This document shows positions 1 through 26,450 of a stretch of DNA of 64,000 nucleotides, in pieces. The notes beneath the pieces are model-generated. The model saw only the letters and a list, made by a program, of their open reading frames with translations. It was not told the origin of the DNA and made no database searches. The first letter of the stretch is position 1. Each line of letters opens with the position of its first letter. Source of the stretch: Eledone cirrhosa (lineage: Eukaryota); contig OZ024740.1 in NCBI GenBank assembly GCA_964016885.1, forward strand, positions 184,264,001 to 184,328,000, given 5' to 3'. Both the position numbers and the translations under genes were made by a program.

Positions 1-1454
1 ACTGTCCGTATTTTCAGCAGTGATATATGTATGCAGTTTGGTATTGGTAAATGTGGAGTCATTGTGATGAGGAGGGGTAGGTTGAGCAGAAGTAACGGGA
101 TCCAGATACCAACAGGTGAGATGATAAAGGAAATTGACTCTGAGGAAGGATACAAGTATTTGGGCGTTCTGGAGGCTGATGGCATAAAGAACAAAAAAAT
201 GAAGGAATTGTTAAGAACTGAATACATTCGGAGAGTAAGGAGCGTATTGAAGTCACATCTGAACAGCAGAAATGCCATAAGCGCAGTAAATTCCCGAGCT
301 GTGTCTATTATTAGGTACAGTGCGGGAATTCTGAGATGGAATGTTGCTGAACAAAAAGAAATGGATAGGAAGACTAGGAAGCTATTGACTATCTACAACA
401 TGTTCCACAAGAGGAGTGATGTCGATAGACTCTACCTAAGGAGATCTGAGGGTGGAAGAGGTCTTATCAGCATAGAGGACTGTGTTCAGATGGAGAAAAA
501 CAACCTATACAAATACGTGACCTATAGTAAGGAGCCAATGCTCAGAGCTGTACTGAAGGAGGGGAGAGTAGGCCAGGGGATACCCAAGGAGGAAATAACA
601 TCAAGGAGGAAGAGCAGCCTTAAGGGAAAATCCCTTCATAGTACCTTCTTTGAGAAAACTGAATTTAGAGATCCACAGACATGGAACTGGTTGAGAAGAG
701 GAGACCTCAAAAAGGCTACAGAAGGAATGCTAATGGCTGCGCAGGAGCAGGCCCTCAAAACGAAGTGGTTGAAGCACCATATCTACAAGGAGGAGGCTAG
801 CCCACTGTGCAGGATCTGTGGAGAGAGAGAGGAGACTGTGGCTCACATTGTGTCCGAGTGTAAACACCTAGCCCAGACCCACTATAAGGGCTGGAGACAC
901 GATGTGATGGGCAGGGTGATCCACTGGCACCTGTGCAAAGTAAACAATCTACCACATTCTGAGAAATGGTATGAGCATAGGCCAGAGGCGGTGATGGAGA
1001 ACAGTCAGGTGAAGGTGCTGTGGGATTTTAGGATACAGACGGACAAAAAACTGGAACACAATAGACCTGACCTGGTGGTTGTGGACAAAGAAAAAAGATC
1101 GTGCCTGATTGTGGATGTGGCCTGCCCGTTCGACACGAGAGTGCAAGAGAAGGAGAGGGAGAAAATTAACCGATACCAGGACCTAAAGTGGGAGGTGAAA
1201 AGGATTTGGAACTGCCATGAAGTCAAAGTGATCCCGATTGTCATAGGCGCACTGGGGACTATCTCCAAAGGTTTCCAGGGATGGTTAAAGAAAATCGGCC
1301 CCTTCACGCTTTTTGGAACGCTTCAAAAGGCATGCTTGCTTGGAACGGCAAGAACCCTCCGATACGTCCTGAATATCTGAGGCTGCAGGTAGTGGCTTGA
1401 TATTCAATCCAACGGACTTTCCAGTTAACCAACATCAATGACTGAGATTCAAGG
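1..1454 (+). mobile_element. R4/Dong-clade (RLE-type) non-LTR retrotransposon, 3' part (Dong copy A), running off the left window edge
   Basis: ORF ends in RT thumb, CCHC and PD-(D/E)xK endonuclease motifs; short 3' UTR ends directly in (AAT)n. Confidence 0.9.
31..1380 (+). CDS. C-terminal part of RLE-retrotransposon polyprotein (RT thumb, CCHC zinc knuckle, restriction-like endonuclease)
   Basis: YKYLGV, GGRGL, CRICGEREETVAHIVSEC, RHD, RPDLVVVD...DVACP...KINRY; frame is open back to position 1, so the true start lies upstream. Confidence 0.9.
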   Translation: MQFGIGKCGVIVMRRGRLSRSNGIQIPTGEMIKEIDSEEGYKYLGVLEADGIKNKKMKELLRTEYIRRVRSVLKSHLNSRNAISAVNSRAVSIIRYSAGILRWNVAEQKEMDRKTRKLLTIYNMFHKRSDVDRLYLRRSEGGRGLISIEDCVQMEKNNLYKYVTYSKEPMLRAVLKEGRVGQGIPKEEITSRRKSSLKGKSLHSTFFEKTEFRDPQTWNWLRRGDLKKATEGMLMAAQEQALKTKWLKHHIYKEEASPLCRICGEREETVAHIVSECKHLAQTHYKGWRHDVMGRVIHWHLCKVNNLPHSEKWYEHRPEAVMENSQVKVLWDFRIQTDKKLEHNRPDLVVVDKEKRSCLIVDVACPFDTRVQEKEREKINRYQDLKWEVKRIWNCHEVKVIPIVIGALGTISKGFQGWLKKIGPFTLFGTLQKACLLGTARTLRYVLNI

Positions 1455-1466
1455 AATAACAATAAC

Positions 1467-1496
<30 letters not shown>
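1455..1496. repeat. (AAT)n microsatellite shared as tail by Dong A (+) and Tx1 copy 1 (-)
   Basis: Direct reading. Confidence 0.95.
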
Positions 1497-1497
<1 letters not shown>

Positions 1498-4160
1498 CTT
1501 TCTTTATTAACCACAAGGGTTCACATAAGGTAGACATTAAGGAGAGTACAGGACAATACAGGACGGTACAAATGGGCATTTCTGCGTGTAAAAAAAAAAA
1601 AAACAGAGGATGTAACAAAAAAATAACAATAAAAAATTCCCCAATAGGGAGGAGACTTCCGAGAGACATTTGTGGAGAAAGCCCATTAAAAGGCCACAGT
1701 GATCCTGACCACCAGGGCAAGTGCCCTCTCCCAGTTTTCCACCTTTAATTTACAGACACATACTCAGATAGGCCCATTCATTCGGGCCATACTTGCTCCT
1801 CTCACCCATCTTTCAACAAAATGCTGGGAAGAGAGCACTTTCCTCTCTACCCTGATTTTCTTTTTCAAATGAAATTTGAAAAAGTTAATCAGGGCATCAC
1901 CGAAGAGGTAAGTGCTCGTCTTCAGCCTTTTCAAACGTGTCCACATTACTATCTCTTTCGCCATGACCACCAGACAAATAAAAATTACCTGCCCTTCTCG
2001 GCTAAAGGAAGGCGGCGGAGCAATCTTCACGATGGACTCAGCTGATAGCAGGATCCGTCCTCCACGTGACAGCAGGTGTTCGACATAAACCCACAAGTCA
2101 GAAATGCTCGGACACTGGACGAGTGCGTGCAGGACGGTTTCGTCGCCCTGCGCGCATCTCGGACATGCCCGGTTGACGGCACCTCCATGCCTGGCAAAGC
2201 TCCTCGGTAGCATTGCCAGGCCAGGGATATACAACTTGCCCGATTGGTCGAAGTCTGTGAGCGCCTGAAGACATTCCCGTCTCCAAGCGATCCCTCTCCG
2301 TCTTCGCTTGAACCAGGACTGCAGCCCCGTCAATGAGACGAGCTGGGGAAAGACGCGTCTAGCAAACGGCGACCACAGTTGCGATAGGTCGGGGAGTGGA
2401 AAATCCTCCACAGGCGTTGATTTTGTTTGTGGCGTGGTGGATGATGTAGGCGCTGGTGCTAGTTCTGGCGCGTTGGGTGGGGGTGGTGGTGTTGGTTTTT
2501 CTACTGTTGCTGGGTGTGTTGCTGTTACAGTTGCTTCTGTTGTTGCTGCTACAGTTGTTGCTGCCATTTCTGCTGCTGGTGGTGTTGATGGTTGAGCCAC
2601 TGGAGTGGGTAAGATAGGTGGTCTCAACCTTTTAGCCGGAGGGCAGAAAGCCCTTAGGTGGGTTCCTTCACCACAATCGCCACACCTAGGCCTTCTGCCC
2701 TCGACGATTACGGTGAGGTGGCTGCCGTCATCTGGGATCTCCTCAATGCTTTTTTGGTCCGCTTGGATCAGGAGCTCCATCACAGATCCGGACCAGTTCA
2801 CCTTCTTTTCTTTTGCTATTTCGATTATCTTGGTGTTGGCCTCGATGCCGGCGAGGAGGGCAGCCATTATCTAGGTAATTTCGATGGCCAGTGGAACGTG
2901 GGTCACCCTGATCTTCACGAGTCTCTGGCCACAATAGCTTGGGACGAGTGTGAAGTCGTCACTCCTTAATGGGGCAATGAAATGTTCTCTGGCCTCCTGT
3001 GGTGTTCCAAAGTACGCTTCCACGTTTCCACATTTCTGCCCACGTCTGACGTGGGTTTTCTTTCGCCCACACCTCTCCCAAAGCATTTTGGATTTGGGAC
3101 TCGTATGCCCGTTCCACTCGGCGCGATTTTATGTTAATCGTCCGATAAGACACGGTGCATAGGCGCCGATGCTCCATTTTATTAGGTGGGGTGGTGAGGC
3201 TAACCCTGTACCCATCTTTCTTTACCATTCCCTTGGCTTCATCTAATTCCTCCTGAGTTACCTGGATTGCTTCGCACTTTTTTGGTGCTTTGGCAAAAGA
3301 CCGGTGGTTTTTGACTTATTCTCATTGTTGTTGTTGATGTTGTTGTTATCGTTAATTTTGTTATTGTTATTTTTAGTTTCAATGATGGTGGTCTTGTAAG
3401 CAATTTCAACTTGGATGAAGCCACGGCCTCCTAGGAAGTTAAAGACGATCCACATCAGCTTTTGGGTGGTGCATCCTATTACAGGTCAGTAGCTTACGGA
3501 CTTTGGTGTCGATTTCACTCATATTCCAGTTTAACACACCGAAGCTATAAGTGACAACTGGGACAAGGAATTTATGGCTAGCACCTTGTTACGAGCGCTT
3601 AGTCCTGATTTCAGAACTGCACGTACTCTCCTGTAACATTCTCTTGTTTTTACCACTGCTACAAACTGTGTTGCTGGTGTTGCTACTGTTGCTGCTATTG
3701 CTACCACAGTTGATATTGTTAATACTGCCGCTGCTGCTGCTACCACCTTTGTTGTCAAATGCAACAGCAGCAGCCGCTTCACGTCGCCTCTTGATGATGA
3801 AGAGAAAGAAATGGCGTTCGCTTGACTTTCACTATGTGACGATGAAGAAAACGAAAAGGAAAGCGAGACTCCACGCTGACATCTGGCTGAAGAAAGAGGA
3901 GGTTGCGGAGGATACCTTGCTGAATGGGTAATGTTTGTGTAGATACAAGGCAGAGAACTAGATTTTTTGAATGACGCCATTTTTCTTCATTTTTTTTTTT
4001 GGCGGGACGTATTTGCTAAATGCAAAGTTAAAATTGGAATTTTGCCCCGAAGAGCTGAATAACGATTAATTTCGACCACTTCAAAAGAAGCGGAGTGTGT
4101 TAAAACACAAAACAATATAATTTTTTACGATAAGTTCGCAATAAAATCTGTTAAAAAATC
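1497..4160 (-). mobile_element. Tx1-type (L1 clade) retrotransposon copy 1, internally deleted so that ORF1 is fused to the ORF2 C-terminus
   Basis: ORF 1764..2867 has the ORF1 knuckle CGDCGEGTHLRAFC and then jumps to ORF2 WSPFARRVFPQ...CPRCAQGDETVLHALVQC; 3' UTR matches the other copies; both ends abut (AAT)n. Confidence 0.85.
3380..3650 (-). pseudogene. Internal fragment of a divergent R4/Dong-type RT thumb region embedded in the 5' region of Tx1 copy 1
   Basis: Translates as ECYRRVRAVLKSGLSARNKVLAINS / GVLNWNMSEIDTKVRKLLTCNRMHHPKADVDRL / GGRGFIQ, collinear with Dong A EYIRRVRSVLKSHLNSRN...DRKTRKLL...DVDRLY...GGRGL. Confidence 0.75.
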
Positions 4161-4177
4161 ATAATAATAATAATAAT

Positions 4178-7100
4178 ACTTTTATTTATTGACCACAAGG
4201 GCCGACATATAGGGGACAATACAAAAGACCGGGACAGTGAGGGTTTACATATACAACGTGTAAACAATATAAATAACAATTACAAAATAGCAAGAAAAAT
4301 ACAAGAAAAATTCCCCAATAGGGGGGATGGCCACCCAGGGTTAACTCCGGTACCCCACCAATCCTGAACGATCCAACGCTTCGAGAGCACCAGGGAAGGG
4401 CACCCCTCACCTCCTCAAATTCACCCAACTACAGGCGCATGATCACAGTAGGCCCACTCACACTGGACATTCTCGCCACATTCTCCCACCTTTCAGTAAA
4501 TGTACTGGAAGACAGCACATCACTCTCCACCCTCACCTTCCTTTCCAAGTGAAACTTGAAAGAGTTGATACAGGGATTGGATGAAGAGAAAAGTGTCTGC
4601 CTTCAGTCCTTTCAACCTGGTCCACCATACATCCTCTTTCGCTACTGCCACCAGACAAAAAAAAATTGCCTGCTCTTCCTGGCCAAAAGAAGACGGCGGG
4701 TCGGTCTTCACTATGGACTTGGCCGATAGCCGGATTCGTTCTACACGCGACAACAGCTGTTCGACATAACTCCACAAGTCAGTAATGCACGGACACTGGA
4801 GGAGTTCGTGCAGAACGGTATAGTCGTTCTGCGCGCATCTCGGGCAGGTCCGCCTGACAGCATTTCCGTGCCTGTAGAGTTTATCTAGAACTGGGAGTGC
4901 CCCCCGGTAGCACTACAAAGCAAGGGATTTTGGAAAATTATCCATCGTCCCGGTTCGAAAGTCCTCCGGAACAGACTGGTTAGTTAGACTTCGTCGACGC
5001 CCAGAGCCTCTCCGAGTGCGCCGTCGCACTTGCCCTCCACTAATCCTCTATAGAACTCGGGTGTGGAAGTTCCACTGGCCGCATTGCCTGCTTGGTATAG
5101 GGCAGTGAGTGCCTGGCAACATTCCAGATGCCAGTCACCCAGTCTCGGTTTCTTCTTGACCCAGGACTGCATCTCAGTCAAATAGACGAGCTGTGGAAAG
5201 GCCCGTCTGACAAACAGCGACAACACCTGTTCACCGTTTAGGCAGAATATCTGGAAATGCCGCAGCCTCAGCACATGTCTGCGCATAATTAGCCACGGCA
5301 TGCCCAGCCCTTCGCGTAGATGGTGCTGGCAGTAGATGGACCGCCTCACCAAGGGAACTTGTTCCCTCCACAAGAATTTGAAAAGGCGCTGTTCTAAATT
5401 GGCGAGGCGCGAACGGGGGCAAAGGACGACGTTCAGACGGTAGTAGATGACAGACGCGATGTATGCGTTGCCACCTTCACCCGACAATTCAGTGATAGCT
5501 ACATCGCAGCCCATTACTGGGTGAGACTGGCTACCCTGCCGTTCCCTTGTCCCAATTCTTATCCACATGTAGATCAGGCCCGAACCAAAACCCGAGTAAC
5601 CTTACCGCTTTCCAGGTGCCGAGTTGCAAGCCCACTGATTTTTCCTGGTTAAGTTTTGCTCCCGTCAACCTTTCATATTCCTCCAATAAGTTGCCGACCA
5701 CCTTGATTTCCGAGTGATGTCGTCCGCATAGGCCGACACAGCCTTTCCGCGTCCTGGTTCGAGCGGGATGCTCTGTAACAGCTCTATCTTCCACAGTAAA
5801 GGCTCGAGAGTCAATACGTACAAAAGGGAGGATAGAGGGCACCATTGACGGACCGATCGGGAGATCTGAACCGGTTCCGAGAAGTGGCCATTAACTTTGA
5901 CCCCCGAGCAGATGCCGCTGTGCATTGCAGCGATCTAGCTTCTGAAGACGGGGCCGAAGCCAGCCGCTTTGAGGACAGCCTGCAGGTATCGATGGTCGAC
6001 CCTATAGAATGCTTTCGATTGATCTAAATTGATCAGAGCGCCACCGAAGCCAGGTTTACACTCTACGCTCTCTATGATGTATCACATCAGGTGGAGGTTG
6101 TCGTGTATGGACCTGGTCAGGATTGCGCAAGTTTGCGCCTCCCCAACCAAATCCTCGACGACAAGCGCCAACCTCTTCGATACAAGCTTGGCTAAAATCT
6201 TAAACTCTGTGTTGAGCTGAGTTATGGACCTTAAATTGTCTAATGTGTCCATCTTGTTCTCGTCTTTCCTTATCAGCGTCACTACACTGTAGCTCACAGA
6301 ACTGGGAATACTCCCGTTCTGCTGCCAGTTGCAGAAGAGCGCTTCGAGGAGATCGGAAAACAAGTCTCGCATATTTACGTAAAGCTAGTAAGCTAGATTA
6401 TCTAAACCGGGTGGCTTGCGCCTTATGCAGCCGACAAGGGCATCCTGAATCTCGGCTGAAGTAATCGGCCTTTCGCAGCGATCAGCGTCGGCCGTCGAGA
6501 GTTGCGGCAAGCCATCGACGTAGGGACTGAAGTCCGCCACTGTCTCTGACTCGCCACTTCCCCCGACAACCGAGAAAAATGTTGGCGAAAAGCTCCACAC
6601 ATTCGCTTGGAATCGTTCAGCTCGTGTCCGTCTCTGTCCGCCGAAGATCGAATTATGGGTTTATTACCACGCTGCGCCTCTGCCACGCTGGACCATCGAA
6701 CAGCTTTGGTTCCCTCGTTTCTCAGAGCACGCGCCTTAGCTCTGACAATGCAACCTTCGTGTTTCGCATCATAGAAATGATCTAATGCCATTCTCGCCGC
6801 TAGAATATTAGTTGCAATGCCACTACAAATCGCATCGTCTAACTTATCTACCAGCTCCCCTCCCTTTCTATTTTTCTCTAACGCTACTTCTTTTCTAAAC
6901 CCAATCGACATTACTCTAATCTCTCTATTGAGAGCCCCCCCCCCCATCTATTGTTGACGACTCCCCGGTCAACTTTTTCTTAGCTAAATTGTTGACCCAG
7001 TCCCTGTAAGCCTTACCTTCCGGAAACGACACGTTCAGCTTCCAGTAACCAGGTCCTAACCTACGCGTCTTATCTAGCTCGACCATACAACTTGTGATCT

Positions 7101-9151
7101 GAATAGGCGACCGTTTTAAAACGTGGACTGCTTACACTATTTCTGTCTATTTTCCTAATGAATATCCTGTCTATATACGATCTAGATGACTCTATGCGGC
7201 TAGTCCAGGCCCACACTGGCGCATTAGGGAAATCTATTTCTTTACTTCGTGCTACGAGCGCCATCAGTTCCTTGTTGGCCCTTCAGACGAGCACGAAGTT
7301 TTGTATGCTTTGTTGGTGTGATTTTATTTGTTTTGGTGACTGTGGTGGTGATGGTTTTGATGGTGTTGTTTCGGTTGCGTCTGTGTTTGTTGTGAGTGCG
7401 GTGTCTGTGGTTTCAGATGTTTGTGTTTTGTTTCATTTGTTCTTGCTTCTGTTTAGGTTGTTTGGGTTTGAAGGATTCTGGTGATGGTGTTGTTGTTGTT
7501 GGTGTTGTTGGGAAGATGTTTGCGTGGGTGGTGTCTGCATTTTTCATTGTGGGTGCTTTTGTGCATTGTTGAATTTTTTTTCTTTTTGTGTTTCCTTTTT
7601 TTTTGTATTTTTTATGATTTTGGTTTCCCCTCATCTCTACTGGTAGATGAGGGGTCTGTGTATGTAAGTGTCTCTGTGTCTGTGTGTGTGTTTATGTTTT
7701 TATTGATGTGTATTTTGGAGGGGAGGGGAATTTGACAACTTTCCTCGTTTACCCCCTGGGTGGTCAATGTTGGTAGTGGTGTTTCTATTGGTTTTGTTGC
7801 TGGTGGTTTTGCCGGTGCTGGTTTTGGTTGTGGTCCTCGCCTCGGCGTCGGCAGCAGTGGAGCCCTCCGACCACTTGCATCTTTAAGCAGTTGAAGGCAG
7901 AAGGCTCGCAAATAGGATTTTTCCCCATAAACGAAACAATGCGGTATTCTGCCCTCAGTCATAATGTGAATTACCGTCCCGTTCTGAAGACGAACGTGGT
8001 CCGGGATTGTTTTAACATTCTCCGGTCTGATCTGGAGAAGTATCTCCAGGTCAACCCGGACCAGTCCTCTCTGGTAGTTTTTGTAACTTCTATCGAGACG
8101 GTATCCGTCCCCTCCACAATCACACATCCCAGAAGCTACCACATGTCATGTCCTGGTGGGATCCTGGGAATGCGGGGACGGGCTGTTCTTTTTAACATGT
8201 GGGAGGGGTAGATTATGACCTTGCTAGTTTTGTAAGGTGTCATAGCATGTTTCATAACGAGGGCTTCTGACTTAAACAGCACCGAAATCGTGCCGTATTG
8301 TCTGCCCCTTGCTATGTATTTGATGTCATCTCTGATGCACCTCACCACGACTTCGCCATCAGCTTGGGGAATTAAAGCTGCCCTCTTGGTTTCTGCTGAG
8401 TTGCATCTGTAATGCACCGGTCTGCGCTCCACTGCTTCAATAGCTTCTACCGGGACAGTTAAGTTGGCCCAGGTTTGCTCTTGCTTGATGAGCTTCCATG
8501 CCGGGGCCAACTTTTCATCTTTGTTCGAGAGGTCCATGCTGAAGCATGGCCACTTTTTGGCTGCTGTTGCAGCGAAAGTGTTCTTCTTGTCGTTGGTGTT
8601 ATTGTTCTTGTTGTTGCTGTTATCTCTGTTGCAGCTGGTTATATATTTGGTGCCGCCATTGTTGTTGTTGTTCTCGGTGCAGTTGGTATTGTTGCTCTTG
8701 GTGCTGTCACTGTTTATGTTCTGGTTAGTGGTGTTAGTTTCGTTGTTGTTTTTGTTGCCATCATTTCTTGTTGCTGTTACTGCTGTGGTTGGTATTGTCA
8801 TTTTCTTTTTTTGGGGTTATTGTTCTTAGTATTGGTGTTACTGCTGCAGCTGTTTATGTTGTTTGTGGTGGTGTTGCTAAATGTTTAGGTCGCTGTCACA
8901 TGACAGCAGACTTAAAGTTGTGGGACGTGGCTCAGCCATGTATTATTTTCTCTCAAGAATTTTTTTTTTAAATACAAAAAGTTCAAATATTAGGGCCAAA
9001 AGGCCCAAATATTACACAGTCACCGCTTCACAGGACAAAGACGGATGTCTTACAACCCTTCTGAAAGAATACAACAATTATTATAAATGTAAATAAATAG
9101 ATGTCCTACTTTTGCGGAGCTCCAGAAACACATCTTTGCTGACTGACAGCC
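4178..9151 (-). mobile_element. Tx1-type retrotransposon copy 2 (divergent subfamily, frameshifted)
   Basis: ORF1 pieces 8136..8801 and 7612..8142; ORF2 pieces with YIDRIF, YSDH, VRQWCPLS, YADD; flanked by (AAT)n at 4161..4177 and 9152..9183. Confidence 0.85.
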
Positions 9152-9183
9152 AATAATAATAATAATAACAATAATAATAATAA

Positions 9184-9868
9184 CTACTTCATGTCAGGTG
9201 AAGTACCAGAGTGATTGACAAAAGGTACCACAGTTTTGGTAATGAAAGACTCAATCAAGTGTAATGATGTTACCAACTATAGGCGTATCACGTGTCTGTC
9301 CGTAATGTGGAAACTGTTCACAAGCATTGTGTCTGAGGAAATCTACCATCACTTCCGCATAAACAAATTGTTACCGGACGAACAGAATGGATGCCGAAAG
9401 AAGTCCCGTGGTACAAAAGACCAGTTACTTATTGATAAGAGGGTAATGAGGAATTGCAAGAGGAGGCATATTGGCCTTGCCATGGGATGGATAGATTACA
9501 AAAAGGCATTCGACGTGGTACCTCATTCTTGGATAACCAAAAGACTAGGGATCTTCAAGAGCGCAAGAAATGGAGAGGGAGAAAATTAACCGATACCAGG
9601 ATTTAAATTTAAAAAGGATTTGGAACTGCCATGAGATAAAGGTTGTCCAGATTGTCATAGGCGCACTAGGTACTATCTCAAAGAGTTTCTAAGGATGGTT
9701 AAAGAAGATTAGTCAAGCCCCATTTTTTGGAACACAACAAAAGGCATGCTTGCTGGGAACAGCAAAAACCCTCCAATACGTCCTGAATGTCTGAGGGTGC
9801 AGGTAGTGGCTTGATATTCAATTCAACAAACTTCCCAGTTAAATAACATCAATGACTGAGACTCAAAG
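9184..9868 (+). mobile_element. Dong copy B, 5'-truncated with a large internal deletion
   Basis: RT N-terminal motifs NYRRITCL, EQNGC, WIDYKKAFD joined at about 9565 to the endonuclease end and 3' UTR; (AAT)n on both sides. Confidence 0.85.
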
Positions 9869-9901
9869 AACAACAATAATAATAATAATAACAATTATAA
9901 T

Positions 9902-15085: not shown

Positions 15086-15107
15086 TAATAATAATAATAA
15101 TAATAAT

Positions 15108-18100
15108 GTTTTCTTTATTAACCACAAGGGTTTACATAAAGTAGACATTAAGGACAGTACAGGACAATACATAACGGTACAAATGGGCATTTCTGCGTGT
15201 AAAAAAACAGAGGATGAAATAAAATAACAAAGAAAAATTACCCAATAGGGGGGAGACTTCCGAGGGACATTTGTGGAGAAAGCCAATTAAAAGACCACAG
15301 TGGCCCTGACCACCAGGGCAGGTGCCCTCTCCCAGTTTTCCACCTTTAATTTACAGACACATACTCAGAGAAGGCCCATTCACTCGGACCGTTCTTCCTC
15401 TCTCACCCATCTTTCAACAAAATGCTGGGAAGAGAGCACTTCCCTCTCTACCCAGATTTTCCTTTTCAGATGAAATTTGAAAAAGTTAATCAGGGCATCA
15501 CCGAAGAGGTAAGTGCTCGTCTTCAGCGCTTTCAAACGTGTCCACCATACTATCTCTTTCGCCATGGCCACCAGACAGATAAAAACTGCCTGCCCTTCCC
15601 GGCTAAAGGAAGAGGGCGGGGCAATCCTCACGATGGACTCAGCTGATAACTGGATCCGTCCTACACGTGACAGCAGGTGTACGACATAAACCCACAAGTC
15701 AGCAATGCTGGGACAATGGACGAGTGCGTGCAGGACGGTTTCGTCGCTCTGCGCGCATCTCGGACATGCCCGGCTGACGGCACCTCCATGCCTGTAAAGT
15801 TTATACCGAACTGGCAAAGCACCCCGGTAGCACTGCCAGGCCAGGGATTTCTGGAAGTTGTCCATAGGCCCCGGCCCGAAAGTACTTCCGAAGAGATTGG
15901 CTAGTTGATTTTCGTCGACGCCTAGAGTTTCTCCAAGTACGTCGTCGCTCTTCCCTTCCACTAATCCTCTATAGAACGCCAAGGTGGAGTTTCCACCGAT
16001 CACATTGCCCGATTGGTCAAGGGCTGTAAGCGACTGAAGACATTCCAGTCTCCAAGCGCTCCCTCTCGGTCTTCGCTTGACCCAGGACTGCAGCTCCGTC
16101 AAGGAGACGAGCTGGGGAAAAACGTGTCTAGCAAACGGCGACCACACCTGATCACCGTCGAGGAAGAGGTGGAGATGTAGTAGCCTAAGCGCGTGTCTGC
16201 GCATCATCAGCCACGGCATGCCCAGCCCTCCACGTAGCGGGTGTTGACAGCAGATGGACCGCCTGACCATCGGAGCGCGTCCCTTCCACAAGAAGCGAAA
16301 GAGCAAACGCTCCAGCGCAGTCAGGCGGGGCTTAGGACAAGGTACGACGGTCAGGCGGTAGTAGATGAGTGACGCGATGTACGCGTTCGCCACCTCCGCT
16401 CGACCTTTCAGGGATAGCTTCCTCTCGGCCCATTTCTGGGTGAGAGAAGCCACCCTGCTCGTCACCTCGTCCCAGTTTTTGTCCGTCTGGATGTCTGGAC
16501 CGAACCAGACCCCTAGCAATTTAACCGGTCTGTCCGTCCAGCGCCCGACGACGCTGTTGGACGGCATGGACCTGCCTCTCCAGGTGCCGAGCTGCAAGCC
16601 CACTGACTTTTCCTGGTGGATCATTGCTCCTGTCACCGCTTCGTATTCTCTTAGTGTAGTGCCGATCGCCTCGATGTGTTTGGCGCTCGACACCACTACG
16701 GTGACATCGTCGGCATATGCTGACACGGATCTTCCGCATCCTAGTTCGCGCGGGACCCCCCTCAACGGCTCCAGTTTGTGCAGTAATGGCGCGAGAGTCA
16801 ATACGTACAATAGGGTCGAGAGGGGACATCCTTGGCGGACCGAGCGCATGATTGTGAACGGTTCCGAAAGGTGACCGTTCACTCTCACTACAGAGCAGAT
16901 GTCGCTGTGCATGGCAGCGATCCAGCCTCTGAAGACGGGCCCAAAGCCAGCCGCCCTCAGGACTGCCGCTAGGTAACGATGGTCGACCCTATCAAAGGCT
17001 TTCGACTGATCTAAATTGATCAAAGACCCACCCGCGCCATGTTCCTTAGCTACCCTCTCTACGATGTATCGCATGAGGTGGAGGTTGTCGTGAATGGATC
17101 TGTCGGGAATGGCGCATGTCTGTGCCTCTCCCACCAGACCACCAACGACAAGCGCCAACCTCTTTGCTAGCACCTTGGCCAAAATCTTGAACTCTGTGTT
17201 TAGCAGAGTTATGGGCCTAAAATTATCTTTGTTATCCCCCTTGTTCGGATCCTTTCTCAGCAGCGCCGCCGCTCCTCGGCTCACAGAGCTGGGAATTCTC
17301 CCGTTCTGTTGCCAGTTGCAGTAGACGTCCGCCAAGAGGCCTCCGAACAAGTTTGGCATTTGTACGTAAAGTTCATAGGGCAGACCATCCAAACCAGGCG
17401 ATTTACCCCTTGTGCAACTAGTCATTCCATCCCGTACTTCAGCGGTTGTTATCGGCTTTTCGCAACACTCCGCCTCAGTGGCCGAAAGCCGCGGTAGTCC
17501 GTCGAGGTAGACACTAAAGTCCATCCCTTGATCCGGCCCGCCACTGCCCCCGAACAGTTGAGCGAAGTGTCGCTGAAAAGCTTCACACATTTGCCCGGGA
17601 TCGAGTAGCATGCGCCCGTCGTTGTCCACCAAAGACCGGATCGTGGCTCTGTTGCCAAGACGCGCCTCCGCCACTCGGGCCCATTGAACGGCTTTCGTCC
17701 CCTCGTGTCTGAGAGCACGCACCCTAGCTCTGACAACGCAGCCTTCGTGCTTTGCATTGAAGTATTGGTCAAGAGCCAATTTCGGCGCAAGTGCGTCGGT
17801 CGCGATGCCTTTGCTAAGCGCCTCGTCTAATTTTCTAACTAATTCTCCCTCTGCTCTATTTTTCTCTATTGCTAAAGTCTTACTAAACCTAATGGACTCT
17901 ATTCTAATTGTTCTTTTCAGAGCAAACCACCACTTGTTGTTGACGATGGCCCCCGTCAACGCCCGCTTAACTAGTTCGCTAATCCGGTCTCTGTAGGCCT
18001 TGCGCGCTGGTAAGGACACGTTTAGCTTCCAGTAACCAGGGCCTCGTCTATGAAGTCTATCTAAGTCAAGCACACAGATCACGAATTTGTGGTCTGTGTA

Positions 18101-19119
18101 GCTGACTATCTTGAATTGTGGACAGCCTATGCTAGACCTATCTATTTCCCTACAAAATATTCTATCTAGATATGATCTGGATGACCCTATGCGATTTGTC
18201 CAAGTCCACATTAGTACATTCGGGAAATCCATTCGGTACCTGTCAGACAGTTCAAAACGTCTGAGCAGGTTGGTGAGACTCTTGCACCCTCCTTCCCTAT
18301 CCACTAATCCCACACAATCCCAGCGTGCATCTATGATCCCGTTCCAGTCGCCCACTAACACTAAAGAGCGGGACGTTCCAAGAAAGCTCTCCAGACGCCG
18401 GAAGAAATCAGGCCGCCCTGCTCCTGTCGGGGCATAGACGGCCACTAACCTGAAAGCTTGGCCGTCTCCGCTGGTCACGTCCTGCACCACCAACTTACCT
18501 TCTGGGTCCAGGAAGATGGCCCGTATGACAAGATCCGAACCTCTCCGAAAAAGCACAGCAACTCCTCCCCCCGATCCCGGACGGCTGGGAGATGCGTACA
18601 CATCGTAGCCGCCGAAGATCGGTGCGAAAGCCTGTGCTTCGGAGATTCTGGTCTCGCTGATGGCCACTACATCTATGTTTAGTGACCTGAGGTCGTTGAG
18701 CAGGTGGCCCTGCTTCCATGACGACCCCAAGCCACGCGCATTTATGCTGCCTATTCTGAGTGAGGTCATGTTGAAAAGGAGTGGAAAAGATGGGAAAGAC
18801 CACTTACCTTACTTCTCGTAGGGGAAGGACGGTTTTTCCATCCTTTTAACTGCTTGTGGCCTCCTCAGGAAGGATGTCCTTATGAATCCTCCTGGAGAGT
18901 GCTTGTCGGAAGTCTCCGATGTCTTTGGGGAATTTTTGTTTTAGTGTCATGTACGTTTTCTGTGTGATGCGAGTGATTTGTATGTGTGGAGGTGGGGTGA
19001 ATTTTGGGGTTGTTGTGTAGTCTTTTTCTGTGATGCTGGTGTTGTGTTGGATGTAGTGTAATAATTGGTTGTTGTTCAAATTTAATGCTGTGTAGTGTGT
19101 ATCGTTTTGGTTGTTTTGT
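15108..19119 (-). mobile_element. Tx1-type retrotransposon copy 4, 5'-truncated upstream of ORF2
   Basis: Uninterrupted ORF2 plus 3' UTR ending AATAAAGAAAAC(ATT)n. Confidence 0.92.
15380..18769 (-). CDS. Tx1-type ORF2: APE endonuclease, reverse transcriptase and C-terminal CCHC finger (1129 aa)
   Basis: INARG, ISET, GDWNG, YLDRIF, YTDH; GKSPGLDG, NFRPITLL, LDQSKAFD, VRQGCPLS, YADD; CPRC...HALVHC. The last residues appear frameshifted relative to sister copies. Confidence 0.93.
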   Translation of the reverse strand: MTSLRIGSINARGLGSSWKQGHLLNDLRSLNIDVVAISETRISEAQAFAPIFGGYDVYASPSRPGSGGGVAVLFRRGSDLVIRAIFLDPEGKLVVQDVTSGDGQAFRLVAVYAPTGAGRPDFFRRLESFLGTSRSLVLVGDWNGIIDARWDCVGLVDREGGCKSLTNLLRRFELSDRYRMDFPNVLMWTWTNRIGSSRSYLDRIFCREIDRSSIGCPQFKIVSYTDHKFVICVLDLDRLHRRGPGYWKLNVSLPARKAYRDRISELVKRALTGAIVNNKWWFALKRTIRIESIRFSKTLAIEKNRAEGELVRKLDEALSKGIATDALAPKLALDQYFNAKHEGCVVRARVRALRHEGTKAVQWARVAEARLGNRATIRSLVDNDGRMLLDPGQMCEAFQRHFAQLFGGSGGPDQGMDFSVYLDGLPRLSATEAECCEKPITTAEVRDGMTSCTRGKSPGLDGLPYELYVQMPNLFGGLLADVYCNWQQNGRIPSSVSRGAAALLRKDPNKGDNKDNFRPITLLNTEFKILAKVLAKRLALVVGGLVGEAQTCAIPDRSIHDNLHLMRYIVERVAKEHGAGGSLINLDQSKAFDRVDHRYLAAVLRAAGFGPVFRGWIAAMHSDICSVVRVNGHLSEPFTIMRSVRQGCPLSTLLYVLTLAPLLHKLEPLRGVPRELGCGRSVSAYADDVTVVVSSAKHIEAIGTTLREYEAVTGAMIHQEKSVGLQLGTWRGRSMPSNSVVGRWTDRPVKLLGVWFGPDIQTDKNWDEVTSRVASLTQKWAERKLSLKGRAEVANAYIASLIYYRLTVVPCPKPRLTALERLLFRFLWKGRAPMVRRSICCQHPLRGGLGMPWLMMRRHALRLLHLHLFLDGDQVWSPFARHVFPQLVSLTELQSWVKRRPRGSAWRLECLQSLTALDQSGNVIGGNSTLAFYRGLVEGKSDDVLGETLGVDENQLANLFGSTFGPGPMDNFQKSLAWQCYRGALPVRYKLYRHGGAVSRACPRCAQSDETVLHALVHCPSIADLWVYVVHLLSRVGRIQLSAESIVRIAPPSSFSREGQAVFICLVAMAKEIVWWTRLKALKTSTYLFGDALINFFKFHLKRKIWVEREVLSSQHFVERWVREEERSE

Positions 19120-19685
19120 TGGAGACTTGATGTGATGGGCAGCGTGATCCACTGGCACCTATGCAAAGTAAACAATTTACAACATTCTGAGAAGTGGTAT
19201 GAGCATAAGCCAGAGTCGGTGATAGAAAACGATCAGGTGAAGGTGCTGTGGGATTTTAGGATAGAGGCGGACAAGAAACTTGGATAACAATAGACCTGAC
19301 CTGGGGGTTTTGAACAAGGAAAAAAGATCATGCCTGATTGTGGATGTAGCCTGCCCATTCGACACGAGAGTGCAAGAGAAGGAGAGGGAGAAAATTAACC
19401 GATACCAGGACTTAAAGTGGCAGGTAAAAAGGATTTGGAACTGCCATGAAGTCAAAGTGGTCCCGATTGTCATAGGCGCACTAGGTACTATCGCAAAAAG
19501 TTTCCAAGGATGGTTAAAGAAAATTGGCCCCTTCACGCTTTTTGGAACGCTTCAAAAGGCATGCTTGCTGGGAACAGCAAGAACCCTCCGATACGTCCTG
19601 AATACCTGAGGCTGCACGTGTGGCTTGATATTCATTTCAACAAACTTTCCAGTTAACTAACATCAATGACTGAGACTCAAAAAAC
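19120..19685 (+). mobile_element. Dong copy C, 3' fragment fused head-to-head to Tx1 copy 4
   Basis: Matches Dong A from about position 892 to its 3' end; tail (AAT)n 19686..19718. Confidence 0.9.
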
Positions 19686-19717
<32 letters not shown>

Positions 19718-19718
<1 letters not shown>

Positions 19719-19892
19719 TGTTTCTACTTTTGGCACAAGGCCAGCAATTACCCTGTACATTACTTGTACTTTATTTTATCGACCCCGTAAGGATGAACGC
19801 AAAGTTAACCTCAATAGGATTTGAACTCAGACTGTAAATGGACGTAAGTATGCTGGAAAGCATGGCGTCCGACCTCACACCGATACTGCCAA
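19718..19892 (-). mobile_element. tRNA-derived SINE family 1 with (ATT)n tail
   Basis: A-box-like TGGCAGTATCGG, B-box GAGTTCAAATCC, 3' end GGCCTTGTGCCAAAAGTAGAAAC(AATT); (AAT)n on both sides. Confidence 0.8.
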
Positions 19893-20079
19893 TAATAATA
19901 ATAACAATAATAATATGTGCAAAATATCAGGAAAGTTATGGACAGTTGATGGAGACAAATTCAGTAATACCTAACACCACTGGTTATGGTCTGCTACCAC
20001 AAAATATTTGGATTTTTAACGTTATCTTAGAAAATAGTGCAATAGTATTAATATTAATAATGACAATAATGATAATATA

Positions 20080-20820
20080 TGTGTAAAGGAAAAATGACTG
20101 GTTGATGGAACTTGAATTGGAAGGAATCAAAAGGAAAATACTTGAAGAAAGTATGAATGAAGAAATTGATGAAAATGAGGGACTTAAAAGGAGTGATGGC
20201 GAGTCTACAGTAAATGAAAAAAGAAAGATTGGTAGTAGAAATAAGAAAGAATTAAGTATGGAAGATCAAAATGCTGTCAGAAATTTATCAAATGATTAAA
20301 AAGGAGGGATTCCCAGATTACAACGATTTCAAAAAGGTGCATACTGGTCAGCTGGAAAACATGACAGGTAAAGTGAATAGATTAGTTTGGTATAAAAAGT
20401 AGGAAATATCACAGAAGAGAATAATTTTAATCTGTGCTGGAACAACATGTAGTAAAGATGTTGGGACTAAAAAGTAAAAAAAAAAGAAAAACAGAGCCGT
20501 GATGGGAAGAAATGTATTCAAATGGATATAAAGATTTAAGGCGAGATGTAAATATAGTTGAGAGAAAGACCTGGGGTCAATTGAGATATGAAAATAAACA
20601 AAATGAACTAAACTAAAAATACAAATCCAGGAGAATGGATTGGATGTTTTTTTAGAAACGCTAAAACAGAGACTGACAGCTAAAACAGAGACTGACAGCT
20701 AAAACAGAGACTGACAGCTAAAACAGTGAAAATTAAAAAGGATGACGAGAGATTAGCTCATTACGGACAAAATTCGAGCATTTAAGACAGAAAAGAAGAC
20801 ATTCTATCAAAAACTTAATG
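20080..20820 (+). pseudogene. Degenerate N-terminal ORF region of an R4/Dong-type element
   Basis: WLMELELEGIKRKI, DIKDLRRDVN, LETLKQRLTAK-like segments; 19-bp unit CTAAAACAGAGACTGACAG repeated 3 times at about 20661..20727. Confidence 0.5.
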
Positions 20821-21649
20821 AATATATAAATAATATTTATAGTAAATATTATTACTATAAATTATATTTTCATTACTATAAATAATATTTATAATATTCA
20901 TTACTATATATAATATTTATAGTAATAATATTTATAGTAATGTACTGGGTAATTGCTGGCCTTGTGCCAAAAGTAGAAACAATTATTTATAGTAATAGGA
21001 GCTCATGGATGGATAAAGTACCAGTAATGTACTGGTGTCGATTTAATGCACTTTTCCCTTCCCCAAATTGTTGGCCTTGTGCGTAAATCAGAAACCAGTA
21101 TTAATATTATCATTTATATTATTATTATCATTTATATTATTATTATCATCATTATTATTTTGCATATTATCACTACATTACTGAGCACGGCTCAGTGTAC
21201 CTTGAATATGTGCAGTGTGGGTTTTGGTGATGTTGTTTCTATTGTATTGAGACTACTCTTTGTAATATGTGTTCAGTGTTTAGTAGTGTTATTTTTTTGC
21301 ATGGTGTATAAAATGCTAAGTCCTGGGATTTGGGTTTTGCATCTGTCTGTCAGTTTTGTTATCATTACCAGAGCACACATTATTATAGGTATTGTTTCTT
21401 TTTTCATCATCCACATTCAGATTATTTTTATCTCCAGATAATTTCTATTTGGTTAGCTTCTCCATTTCCATGATAGATGTATTGTCGTCTGTGTTGATTG
21501 ATACATCAATTAGAAGATACGTTTTGTTTGTAGTTTTATTATTATTAGTAGCAGTATTGTTGTTGTTGTTATAACTCTGCCAAACAGTGCAGATGGATAA
21601 TGCACCGGAGTATTTAGTCATCTGTCAAGTCACAACAAGGACATCAAAC

Positions 21650-22090
21650 AGATAATACTTTCCTCAGAATGTGTACAGTACCTAGCAAAGCCACCTTTTA
21701 TATGATACCTAACCTGTATGGTTTCCTAGTGGCTTTAAACAGTTTTGAGGTTTCAGTGAGATTGATCTAATACCCGATCACAACTGGTATCACTTTCACA
21801 TTAGCCTCTTGCATTCCAAATAGTCTTGCCAGTTCCACTTTCAATTCAGAATATTTGGTGATTTTTTTCAATCTCCTTACTTGTAATATTCATACCATTT
21901 GGTATGGCTATGTCTATGATCTGACAGTATTTGTCTTTCTTGTTCAGTGCAACAATGTCCGGTCGGCAATGCTTAATTACTCTATCAGTTGGAAAATCAT
22001 AATCCCAGAATATCGTTGCTTTCCCATCCGCCTGCATTATTTTACAAGGCACATGCTCATACCAATTCCATATGATTTCATGTTGGTATT
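21650..22090 (-). pseudogene. Old R4/Dong-type endonuclease fragment
   Basis: WYEHVP...IFWDY...HCRPDIVALNKKDKYCQIIDIAIP. Confidence 0.7.
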
Positions 22091-22130
22091 TATGATACAA
22101 GTCATTGTTATTATTATTACTATTATTATT

Positions 22131-22360
22131 GGGTGGTGGAATTGGACACCATACTGGTAGAGCATTGGACACCATACTTTGCAGCATGCAGTTATGGCCC
22201 TTTACGTTCTGAGTTCAAATCCCGCCGAGGATATCTTTGCATTTCATCTTTATGTGGTCGATAAAATAATACACCAGTAATGCACTGGTGTCGATTCAAT
22301 CGACTTTCCCCTCCTCTTCAAGTTGCTGGCCTTGTGCCTATAGAAACAATTATTATTATT
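22131..22360 (+). mobile_element. SINE family 1 copy flanked by (ATT)n
   Basis: GAGTTCAAATCCCGCCGAGG B-box; GGCCTTGTGCCTATAGAAACAATTATT end. Confidence 0.75.
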
Positions 22361-22380: not shown

Positions 22381-23253
22381 AACTCCACCTTGACTTTTTA
22401 TAGAGGATTAGTGGAAGGAAAGAGCAACAACGTCCTTGGGGAAACTCTAGGCGAAAACCAACTAGCCAATCTTTTCGGGAGAACTTTCGGGCCGTGTCCC
22501 ATGGACAACTTCCAGAAATCACTAGCCTGACAGTGCTACCGAGGAGCCTTGCCAGTTCGGGATAAACTCTATATGCATGGAAGTGCCGTCAGCTGAGCCT
22601 CTCGGAGATGCGCACAGGGCGATGAAACCGCCCTGCACGTACTCGTCCAGTGTCCGAGCATTGCTGATTTGTGGGTTTATGCCGAACATCTGCTGTCACG
22701 TGTAGGAACGGATCTGGCTCTCAGCTGAGTCCATCGTGAAGATTGCCCTGCCGCCTCCCTTTAGCCGAGAAGGGCAGGCAGTTTTTATCTGCCTGGTGGC
22801 CATGGTGAAAGAGATTGTATGGTGGACACGTCTGAAAGGTTTCAGGACCGGTACTTTCCTCTTCGTGACGCCCTCATTAACTTTTTCAGGTTTCACCTGA
22901 AGAGGAAAATCAGGGTGGAGAGGGGAGGCGCTGACCTCCAGCCAGTTTGTTGAAAGGTGGGTGAGAGACGCAAGAATGGCCCGTGTGAATGGGTATACCC
23001 TCAGCGTGTGCCTGTAGCATTGTAGGAGGAAAACTGGAAGAGGGCATTTGTCAGGGTAACCGTAGCTTTTCTTGATGGCTTTCTCCAAGAGCAACCCTCT
23101 GAGGTCACCCCGCTATTGGGAATTTTTCATTATTTCCATTTGTCACACTCTGTTTTTTTTTTTTTTTTTACATACAGAAATGCCCATTTGTATTGTCCTG
23201 TGTTGTCCTTAATGTTAAACTTTGTGTCAACCCTTGTGGTTAATAAAGAAAGC
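22381..23253 (+). mobile_element. Tx1-type 3' fragment (copy 6)
   Basis: Matches the ORF2 C-terminus and 3' UTR; ends AATAAAGAAAGC then (ATT)n 23254..23301. Confidence 0.85.
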
Positions 23254-23301
23254 ATTATTATTATTATCATTAGTATTATTAGTATTATAATTATTGTTAT
23301 T

Positions 23302-23862
23302 TTTGTGTCTCAGTCATTGATGTTATTTAAATGGAAGGTTTGTTGAAATGAATATCAAGCCGCTACCTGAAGCCTCAGATATTCAGGACATATCGGAGGG
23401 TTCTTAATGTTCCCACCAAGCATGCCTTTTGAAGTGTTCCGAAAAGTGGGGCTGGACTAATCTTTTTTAACCATCCTTGGAAACTCTTTCAGACAGTACA
23501 TAGTGTGCCTATGACAATCGGGACGACCTTGATTTAATGGCAGCTCCAAATCGTTTTACCTTCCACTTTAAGTCCTGGTATCGGTTAATTTTCTCCCTCT
23601 TCTTTTCTTGCACCCTCGTGTCAAATGGGTAGGCTACATCTACAATCAGGCACGATCTTTGTTCCTTATCAAAAATCACCAGGTCAGGCCTATTGTGTTC
23701 TAACTTCTTGTCCGTCTGTATCCTAAAATCCCATAGCACCTTCAGCTGATCGTTTTCTATCACCCACTCTGGTTTTGCTAATACCACTTCTCAGAATGTG
23801 GTAAATTGTTTACTTTGCATAGATGCCAGTGGATCACCCTGCCTATCACATCATGTCTCCAG
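23302..23862 (-). mobile_element. Dong copy D, 3' fragment, tail-to-tail with Tx1 copy 6 and head-to-head with Tx1 copy 5
   Basis: Reverse complement matches Dong A from 891 to the 3' end (VLWDFRIQTDKKLEHNRPD). Confidence 0.9.
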
Positions 23863-26214
23863 AATCTGCTCAGGCGTTTTGAACTGTCTGACAGGTACGG
23901 TTTGGATTTCCCGAATGTGCCAATGTGGACTTGGACAAACCACATAGGGTCATCCAGATCATATCTAGATAGAGTATTTTGTAGGGAAATACAAAGGTCT
24001 AGCATAGGCAGTCCACAATTCAAGATAGTCAGCTACACGGACCACACATTCGTGATCTGTGTGCTTGACTTAGATAGGCTTCATAGACGAGGACCCGGCT
24101 ACTGGAAGCTAAACGCGTCCTTACCAGCGCGCAAGGCATACAGAGACCGGATTAGCGAACTAGTTAAGCGGGCGTTGACGGGGGCCATCGTCAACAACAA
24201 GTGGTGGTTTGCTCTGAGAAGAGCGATTAAAATAGAGTCCATTAGGTTTAGTAGGGCTTTAGCAATAGAGAAAATTAGAGCAGAGAGAGAACAAGTTAGA
24301 AAATTAGACGAGGCGCTTAGCAGAGGCATCGCGACCGACGTACTTGCGGCGAAATTGGCCCTTGACCAATTCTTCAATGCAAAGAACGAAGGCTGCGTTG
24401 TCAGAGTTAGGGTGCGTGCTCTCAGACACGAAGGGACGGGCGCCATTCAATGGGACCGAGTGGCGGAGGCACATCGTCGCAAGAAAGCAACGATCCGGTC
24501 TTTGGTGGATCACGACGGTCGCATTCTACTCGATCCTGGGCAAATATGTGAAGCTTTTCAGCGACACTTCGCTCAGCTGTTCGGGGGCAGCGGTGGGCCG
24601 GGTCGAGGGATGGACTTTAGTGTCTACCTCGACGGACTGCCGCGGCTCTCGGCCACTGAGGCGGAGTGTTGCGAAAAGCCGATAACAGCCGCTGAAGTAC
24701 GAGAGGCAATCACTGGCTGCACAAGGGGTAAATCGCCTGGTTTGGATGGTCTGCTCTATGAACTTTACGTACAGATTCCAGATTTGTTCGGAGACCTCTT
24801 CGCGGACGTCTACTGCAACTGGCAACAGAACGGGATAAATCCCAGCTCTGTGAGCCGAGGAGCGGTGGCGCTGCAGAGAAAGGATCCGAACAAGGGGGAT
24901 AACATGGATAATTTCAGGCACATAACTCTGCTAAACACAGACTTCAAGATTTTGGCCAAGGTGCTAGCAAAGAGGTTAGCGCTTGTCGTTGGTGGTCTAG
25001 TGGGAGAGGCGCAGACATGTGCCATTCCCGACAGATCCATCCACGACAACCTCCACCTAATGCGATACCTCGTAGAGAGGGTAGCTAGGGAACCTGACAC
25101 GGGTGGGTCCTTGATCAATTTAGATCAGTCGAAAGCTTTCGATAGGGTCGACCATCGTTACCTGGCGGCAGTCCTGAAGGCGGCTGGCTTTGTGCCCGTC
25201 TTCAGAGGCTGGATCACTGCTATGCACAGCGACATCTGCTCTGTGGTGAGAGTGAAGGGTCACCTTTCAGAACCGTTCAACATCATGCGCTCGGTCCACC
25301 AAGAATGTCCCCTCTCGTCCCTATTGTACGTATTGACTCTCGATCAATTAATGCACGAACTGGAGACGTTGAGGGACGTCTCGCGCGTACTAGGATGCGG
25401 TAGATCCGTGTCAGCATATGCGGACGATGTCACTGTAGTTTTGTCGAACGACAAACACACCGAGGCGATCGGCACTACACTAAGAGAATACGAAGCGGTG
25501 ACAGGAGCAATGATCAACCAGGAAAAGTCAGTGGGCCTGCAGCGCGGCACCTGGAGAGGCAGTTCCATGCCGTCCAACAGCGTCGTCGGGCGCTGGATGG
25601 ACGGACCGGTAAAATTGCTATGGGTCTGGTTCGGTCCGGACCTCCAGACGGACAAAAACTGCCAGTTCGGGATAAACTCTACAGGCATGGAGGTGCCGTC
25701 AGCCGGGTTTGTCCGAGTTCCGCGCAGGGCAACTGAACCGTCCTGCACGCACTCGTCCAATGTCCGAGAATTGCTGACTTGTGGGTTTATGTCGAACACC
25801 TGCTGTCGCCTGTAGGACGGATCCGGCTATCAGCTGAGTCCACCGTGAGGATTTCCCCGCCCTCTTCCTTTAGCCGGGAAAGGCAGGCAGTTTTAATCTG
25901 TCTGGTGGCCATGGCGAAAGAGATATTATGATGGATACGGTTGAAAGGGCTGAAGACGAGCACTTCCCTCTTCGGTGATGCCTTGATTACCTTTTTCAAA
26001 TTTCATTTGAAAAGGAAAATCGGGGTAGAGAGGGAAGTGCTCTCTTCCCAGCATTTTGTTGAAAGATGGGTGAGAGAAGCAAGAATGGCCCGAGTGAATG
26101 GGCCTACTCTGAGTATGTGTCTGTAAATAAAGGTGGAAAACTGGGAGAGGGCACTTGCCCTGGTGGTCAGGGTCACTGTGGCTTTTTAATGGGCTTTCTC
26201 CACAAATGTCCCTC
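23863..26214 (+). mobile_element. Tx1-type copy 5, 5'-truncated inside APE, internal deletion at about 25660, 3' UTR cut short
   Basis: ORF 23806..25815 is close to ORF2 of copy 4 (YTDH, LDQSKAFD, YADD). Confidence 0.88.
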
Positions 26215-26221
26215 CAATTAG

Positions 26222-26450
26222 GGCAGTGGATTGGCAGTATCGGTAGAGTGTTGAATGTCTTGCAGGATAGAGTTATGGCGTTTTACAATCTGGTCTGAGT
26301 TCAAATCTTGCCGAGGTTAGCTTTGCTTTTTATCTTAATGGGGTCAATAAAGTAAAGTACTAGTCATGCACTGGAGTCAATTTAATCAACTTTTCCCTTT
26401 CCCTTCCTCACAAATTGTGCCTAAATCTGAAACCATTATTATTATTATTT
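26222..26450 (+). mobile_element. SINE family 1 copy
   Basis: GGATTGGCAGTATCGGTAGAG...GAGTTCAAATC...(ATT)n. Confidence 0.75.

Follow-up and report, generated by a model that had tools for sequence, protein, structure and literature searches.

How do two unrelated clades of retrotransposon come to meet repeatedly, and in opposite directions, at one and the same microsatellite? The question is raised by the first 26,450 nucleotides of a 64,000-nucleotide stretch of the genome of the octopod Eledone cirrhosa (contig OZ024740.1, positions 184,264,001 to 184,328,000), which was analysed as a whole and which we call the window. The cluster holds retrotransposons without long terminal repeats (non-LTR elements) of two kinds: Tx1-type elements of the L1 group, with an apurinic/apyrimidinic-type endonuclease (APE), and Dong/R4-like elements, with a restriction-like endonuclease (RLE). 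Among them lie tracts of (AAT)n, which is (ATT)n on the other strand, and copies of a short interspersed element (SINE). The non-LTR elements are decayed, and on balance we think it probable that the cluster was built by repeated separate insertions, with Dong using one strand of the repeat for priming and Tx1, together with a probable partner SINE, using the other.

The tracts provide the most direct view of the layout (Table 1). A tract was defined as at least four AAT or ATT units, and the cluster as positions 1-26450 of the window. By this census, 13 tracts lie in the cluster and none in the remaining 37.5 kb (26451-64000). Together they amount to 455 bp, or 1.7% of the cluster; all 13 adjoin the end of an element, and 9 have element ends on both sides (in one of the nine, 20 bp off). 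The 7 tracts on the left read AAT and the 6 on the right read ATT, with one switch only; at most one switch among 13 tracts has p=0.003 if polarities are independent, and a single switch is expected if the tracts descend from a seed tract. An earlier note on this DNA had placed tracts at 1455, 4161, 9152, 9869, 15045, 19686, and 23254, and all seven are present. It had also claimed that the two clades point in opposite directions, even where the cluster is inverted; the block at 21-26.4 kb does keep the opposite polarity, and the cluster as a whole has one exception, weighed below. Two RLE-type fragments that are new relative to that note, E (21576-22100, minus) and G (20084-20822, plus), obey the same rule. 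As for the phase of the junctions, four of five element heads come after ATT, which is not significant (about 0.14, by hand calculation). An assembly artefact as the cause of the cluster is ruled out, because the copies differ by 7-26%.

Six copies are of Tx1 type (T1 to T6). They have the features of the Tx1 clade within the L1 group: two open reading frames (ORFs), the second of which (ORF2) combines the APE endonuclease (EN), reverse transcriptase (RT), and a C-terminal zinc knuckle, with remnants of ORF1 in T1-T3. The ORF2 of T4 matches the Pfam families PF03372, PF00078, and PF13966; its best relative of solved structure is human L1 ORF2p (E=4.5e-118), and for this long ORF the nearest named relative comes from Argonauta hians, at 68% identity across 58% of the query. 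An RT tree of 43 rows, built without Repbase references, places T4 and T6 in an open group with a Stylophora protein named "Transposon TX1", apart from plant L1. The cluster contains several subfamilies: T1, T3, T4, and T6 are 89-92% identical, T5 stands at 81-84%, and T2 at 74-76%. All five copies with intact 3' ends (T1-T5) finish with AATAAA, 4-6 nt, and then (ATT)n, in agreement with what had been claimed for them; T6 is cut in its 3' untranslated region (UTR). At the other end, each of the three apparently full-length copies (T1-T3) starts directly after (ATT)n. The catalytic motifs of EN are kept in T4, and a loop predicted to align with the hairpin by which L1 EN probes its target (PMC1950540) has equal length and motif in T2, T3, T4, and T6. 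These motifs and the conserved loop may lend slight support to an ATT target.

Over the Tx1 array region at 2900-15062, four runs show a highly repeated family, with 64,168 and 66,421 contigs matched in X1 and X4; repeat tracts were skipped and no loose ends came up at element termini, so that these runs are silent on flanks. All 30 bins of the region were covered in X1, X4, and X5, and 29 of 30 in X8. Exact pattern scans of metagenome and genome contigs for the Tx1 3' end gave no matches, and viral contigs yielded no relative. Distant relatives, for the most part at 23-32% identity, were covered at 83 loci; none of these carries an (AAT)n run of at least four units, but at such a distance they say nothing about the target. 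We also observed 5' module swapping, with four unrelated 5' regions on the four copies T1-T4 (no blastn match in 6/6 pairs), and an in-frame fusion of ORF1 to the end of ORF2 by internal deletion in T1 (1764-2870, minus), which could be a non-autonomous form.

On the Dong side, copies A-D all end in (AAT)n, as the earlier note held, and at this locus (AAT)n is also found on the 5' side of copies B and E. The architecture consists of RT, a CCHC knuckle, and a C-terminal PD..D/ExK nuclease motif, seen in copy A; it is that of the R4 clade, whose insertion in TAA repeats is likewise found at this locus. An N-terminal CCHH pattern was present in 0 of 120 homologues of the RLE element. From these motif features we take the copies to belong to R4 and not to R2 or NeSL, a label that describes motif patterns and not a tree with references; the ESM Atlas returned no clade name for the RLE element. 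The 5' breaks of C and D lie within ~2 nt of each other (19111 and 23862), and both copies are fused head-to-head to a truncated Tx1 without a tract; the shared break is possibly a truncation hotspot or the mark of a short non-autonomous Dong derivative. A distant RLE-type fragment lies outside the cluster (27551-28577, minus), with a short GAT repeat after it and no AAT.

Table 1. Elements and (AAT)n/(ATT)n tracts in positions 1-26450 of the window
Feature	Position	Strand	Remarks
RLE-type (Dong/R4-like) copy A, 3' part	1-1454	+	clipped by window edge; frame open to 1380 with RT end, CCHC knuckle, and RPD..D..EK nuclease motif
(AAT)n tract	1455-1496		tail-to-tail joint of A and T1
Tx1-type copy 1 (T1)	1497-4160	-	internal deletion near 2390 joins ORF1 in frame to ORF2 end
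Internal fragment of another RLE family	3427-3647	-	nested in T1 ORF1, parallel to T1; without 3' end
Tract	4161-4178		T2 tail/T1 head
Tx1-type copy 2 (T2), divergent subfamily	4179-9151	-	74-76% to others; EN region mostly missing; several stops and frameshifts
Tract	9152-9183		T2 head/truncated 5' end of Dong B; neither side is a tail
Dong-like copy B	9184-9868	+	5' truncation within RT; a large internal part deleted near 9560
Tract	9869-9901		tail-to-tail joint of B and T3
Tx1-type copy 3 (T3)	9902-15044	-	own 5' UTR and ORF1; ~0.7 kb deletion at 11590; frameshifted
Tract, 21 units	15045-15107		T4 tail/T3 head
Tx1-type copy 4 (T4)	15108-19110	-	ORF2 open for 1129 aa from ATG at 18769 (APE, YADD-bearing RT, and zinc knuckle at the C terminus); 5' truncation falls in ORF1
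Dong-like copy C	19111-19685	+	5'-truncated; head-to-head fusion with T4, without tract
Tract	19686-19718		tail-to-tail joint of C and SINE
SINE copy	19719-19890	-	flanked on either side by (ATT)n; 14 of last 22 nt agree with Tx1 3' end
Tract	19891-19914		at SINE head; then 125-bp piece of no assigned family
RLE-type fragment G, N-terminal	20084-20822	+	degraded; degenerate AAT run before it
Polarity switch	20936-21159	+	SINE 3' pieces; the (ATT)n tracts begin here, the first at 21099-21159
RLE-type copy E (~21576-22100), different family	21536-22129	-	AAC/AAT tail 21536-21575; AAT tract at 5' end 22108-22129
SINE copy	22130-22360	+	(ATT)n on both sides
Tx1-type copy 5 (T5), third subfamily	22381-23253	+	81-84% to T1, T3, T4, T6; 5'-truncated
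Degenerate (ATT)n tract	23254-23301		tail-to-tail joint of T5 and D
Dong-like copy D	23302-23862	-	5' break within ~2 nt of that of C; head-to-head fusion with T6, without tract
Tx1-type copy 6 (T6)	23863-26214	+	both ends cut; ~0.66 kb deletion at 25660
SINE copy	26215-26449	+	(ATT)5 tail; last element of cluster

Is (ATT)n a target of Tx1, or only its tail? The earlier note argued for a target from the starts of T1-T3. These starts do follow (ATT)n, but they are not independent evidence, since each tract can be the tail of the copy upstream. Once Dong B is taken out, the Tx1 copies form one continuous head-to-tail array, T4-T3-T2-T1, on ATT tracts. Better support comes from three other sources: the landings of divergent copies, the SINE flanked on both sides, and a sister lineage that lacks a tail. 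Divergent Tx1 copies with unrelated 5' ends join precisely at tracts that make up so little of the cluster, which favours a target; a tail combined with random insertion would not give that. Two SINE copies carry (ATT)n at head and tail, and the head tract is not recognisable as a Tx1 tail. We therefore regard a Tx1 preference for (ATT)n as likely, and it may be loose.

The sister lineage occurs on animal-like contigs of one genome, G001; it shares 40% protein identity with octopod Tx1 and forms its sister clade in the RT tree (support 100/99). G001 is labelled a bacterial metagenome-assembled genome, yet has animal-like contigs (C3-C19; loci L081-L119, L122, L124, and L135-L159). The sister elements, with ORF2 copies 94-99.8% identical, stand in long head-to-tail arrays of up to 13 units on one contig, with a period of ~6.5 kb. 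Their 64 3'-end motifs lie on 15 contigs, with a single orientation per contig; the elements end at AATAAA, followed by a locus-specific spacer of ~11-18 bp, which varies by locus, and have no repeat tail. On contig C17, a two-copy array carries an 18-bp spacer (16/18 identical) at each of its outer edges; on C6, the spacer occupies the outer 5' edge and follows every one of four copies, the array exceeding the contig at its other end. Checks for a target duplication on five sister contigs gave matching edges on C17, an ambiguous outcome on C18, no clear match on C19 and C3, and a match to another internal junction on C13. From these sequences, the letters after AATAAA look target-derived in the sister lineage; by analogy, the octopod (ATT)n may be target-derived as well. 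Rfam reported nothing at gathering score in 7 sister loci, and TA-repeat noise only in positions 1-50000 of the window. G001 too has swapped 5' modules: in L089, L106, L086, L101, and L083, ORF2 is 99.7-99.8% identical and the upstream regions are 73-74% identical over partial alignments.

The SINE is tied to Tx1 by its 3' end. Of its last 22 nt, 14 agree with the Tx1 3' end (shuffle p ~0.001) and 13 with that of T2 (p=0.005), and it is probable that the SINE uses Tx1 proteins. It has what we take to be a tRNA-like B-box motif; ARAGORN detected no tRNA. An 11-nt motif shortly before the 3' end is common to the octopod SINE and the G001 element, and its 7-nt core occurs in octopod Tx1; this is possibly a conserved RNA recognition signal. 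At the polarity switch, a 50-bp SINE 3' piece (20936-20985), beside an AT-rich run (20823-20936), is 98% identical, in inverted orientation, to 19715-19764. Farther along the window, among the SINE copies at 48673-49010 and 42673-42857, two stand tail-to-tail ~20 bp apart, and another has flanks that are mutually inverted copies.

How would such a cluster grow? In the reading we favour, both elements would use target-primed reverse transcription at (AAT)n. Their RNAs would end in read-through repeat units, AAU for Dong and AUU for Tx1, such that the Dong RNA would pair with a nicked ATT strand and the Tx1 RNA with a nicked AAT strand; Tx1 EN would nick in a strand-specific manner. Each insertion would split one tract into two of the same polarity, and a seed tract would grow into an array. 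The expected outcome is the Tx1 array T4-T3-T2-T1 with Dong copies wedged in reversed, and the right-hand block would be an inverted part or a second seed. Growth could then be reciprocal, each family feeding the other with targets. Use of Dong-made tracts by Tx1 is plausible; since the elements lie side by side and are not nested, the order of insertion is unreadable, and so no joint proves it. The targeting of TAA known for Dong suffices alone for the tail-to-tail joints. The earlier proposal that an ATT-specific Tx1 and Dong share a target with opposite polarity thus survives in part: the data accord with a shared (AAT)n used in opposite polarity, and "ATT-specific" is a candidate description, drawn from the one locus read.

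Several observations pull against shared targeting. The layout is read at one locus only. The 5' (ATT)n of T1 and T3 is also the tail of T2 and T4, and that of T2 may be the remainder of the T3 tail after insertion of Dong B. The sole polarity exception is an internal RLE fragment (3427-3647), nested in T1 and parallel to Tx1. A 5' tract is missing from Dong C and D, as well as from all three 5'-truncated Tx1 copies, T4-T6 (T5 starts 20 bp from a tract), and three near-complete SINE copies outside the cluster have a short AATTAT tail only, with a head tract in 0/3. In the sister lineage, an (AAT)n run of at least four units occurs in 0/41 loci, yet the same head-to-tail arrays are formed; because that lineage arrays without a microsatellite, arraying may be self-directed and not ATT-directed. 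These facts can be arranged into an account in which Dong alone targets (AAT)n: the (ATT)n of Tx1 would be its own tail, Tx1 would array itself at its own junction, and Dong would enter the tails, producing the antiparallel joints. The continuity of T4-T3-T2-T1 without Dong B, the sister arrays with their locus-varying spacers, and the SINE copies that lack tracts outside the cluster all sit well with it, and TAA tails without targeting are known, for example in the I element (PMC3747384). We nonetheless judge this account rather unlikely. Given a sister lineage without its own tail, a fixed ATT tail would count as a new trait; a Tx1 tail does not explain the head-side tracts of two SINE copies; and three Tx1 subfamilies, which differ by up to 26%, share the ATT end in register. 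It is more improbable by far that both families inserted loosely in AT-rich DNA, each with its own tail, and survived in a repeat hotspot with few genes. Octopus vulgaris, which has transposable element hotspots, carries both groups in abundance and with recent activity (PMC13282606), and the rest of the window is low in GC and rich in TA repeats, but the junction census largely refutes such a passive pile-up: intact ends meet at the sparse tracts, the bodies of elements are hardly ever broken into, with a single nested fragment, and the tracts switch polarity once.

The same layout could also go back to one or two founding joints and owe its present form to events after insertion: duplication of segments, inversion, and unequal recombination among AAT tracts. 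The unit Dong-tract-Tx1 is present three times, C and D share a 5' break and a head-to-head Tx1 neighbour, and the SINE piece at the polarity switch nearly repeats, inverted, the SINE end at 19715. Comparison of the halves of these units is partly consistent with duplication: rate tests do not reject co-duplication in two of three cases, A-T1 versus B-T3 (p=0.10) and A-T1 versus D-T5 (p=0.33), and the Tx1 quartet favours no split (site counts 9:9:3), points that also tell against separate insertion. The third case does not fit, as the halves of B-T3 and D-T5 have diverged unequally (88% versus 80%, Fisher p=0.003). Among the Dong copies, the quartet groups A with C, which is joined to a SINE, and not with B or D (AC|BD, 14 informative sites versus 1); C and D are 88% identical, while T4 and T6 are 92% and A and C 91.5% identical. 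Overall, cluster copies are 74-93% identical, and Tx1 neighbours in the head-to-tail array are no duplicates of each other (T1/T2 75%, T3/T4 90%). Given the 14:1 quartet, the unequal halves of B-T3 and D-T5, and four unrelated Tx1 5' regions, simple duplication is unlikely as the cause of the whole cluster, and assembly after insertion appears improbable to us; for single joints, duplication is not rejected in all cases.

A wider proposal can be put forward tentatively, as something we hold possible and would not yet expect. In octopod Tx1, a lineage-wide habit of re-insertion at the element's own target duplication may have become a strand-specific targeting of (ATT)n. Mutual feeding of targets with Dong would then operate genome-wide, giving antiparallel, self-growing arrays in which a Tx1-dependent SINE takes part, and the sister lineage would represent the ancestral, microsatellite-free state.

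Beyond 28 kb, the window consists of DNA rich in TA repeats. There, a 1.4-kb inverted repeat (37383-38765 and 40865-42260, 95% identical) surrounds a TA-rich core.

What would such a system add? An ATT-preferring variant of the microsatellite-targeting Tx1 elements is likely to be new. No published report of a Tx1 targeting ATT or AAT was found in a search that did not cover Repbase Reports, most subscription papers, or Fig. 3 and the supplements of PMC4494074, which may name one. If the reading is true, (ATT)n joins the list of Tx1 targets, and two classes of endonuclease work on opposite strands of one dispersed microsatellite. Dong-R4 and L1-Tx1 are expanded or recently active in octopus (PMC8967140, PMC13282606), with 5 Dong-R4 and 13 L1-Tx1 recently active families in Octopus vulgaris (PMC13282606); since both groups are large and recently active there, the rule could account for some of the hotspots of repeats in octopus genomes. 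The word "target" is absent from the main text of that paper (PMC13282606). The octopod and sister pair would expose how microsatellite specificity arises: with a microsatellite-free sister, one can test what sets the specificity of Tx1, the reading of RNA through into the target or the endonuclease loop. The finding stays inside known retrotransposon biology.

Its place there is best seen by comparison, and the analogies drawn in the earlier note to Dong, Kibi, Koshi, and TRAS/SART agree with the literature (PMC3812793, PMC10088271). Among Tx1 families, Kibi targets (TC)n, Koshi (TTC)n, and crocodilian families (TTCC)n or (TTTC)n (PMC4494074, PMC3812793), and a family counts as microsatellite-specific when more than 20% of its genome-wide flanks are the target (PMC4494074). 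The present Tx1 resembles Kibi and Koshi as an APE element at one microsatellite in one polarity, and differs in its repeat unit, ATT, and its octopod host. The likeness is one of target; the nearest relative with readable DNA is not microsatellite-associated. That relative, the sister lineage of G001, has in common with the octopod element head-to-tail arrays, the AATAAA end, and swapped 5' modules on a conserved ORF2; it differs in having no microsatellite. Dong and Rex6, of the R4 clade, insert in TAA repeats (PMC3812793, PMC1635306). Like them, the RLE-type copies here end in (AAT)n, with B and E also starting after it; the Dong side is ordinary, and the novelty is a second clade on the other strand. 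The SINE, with what we take to be a tRNA-like B-box, recalls a known pair in having the same target preference as a Tx1 element. In that pair, Tx1-Mar and SINEU, the SINE shares the preference of the Tx1 family and is often in tandem, and the target is a Mariner transposon (PMC4494074). Convergence of an APE Tx1 and an RLE element on one target is known from Keno (Tx1) and Utopia (NeSL), both in U2 snRNA genes (PMC4640811); in that case the target is one site of an RNA gene and the 3' flanks are identical, and here it is a repeat, entered on opposite strands, which would be regenerated with every insertion. A parallel in organization is that of TRAS and SART, which lie in opposite orientation in one telomeric repeat of Bombyx and form arrays (PMC10088271). 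Those two are both R1-clade APE elements at telomeres, whereas the present elements belong to the L1 group and the RLE type, and none of the 86 tandem-repeat rows of the window is a TTAGG array. With two families, one tandem repeat, opposite orientation, and arrays, the cluster works like the TRAS/SART pair without being a member of it, as an APE and an RLE element on a dispersed microsatellite.

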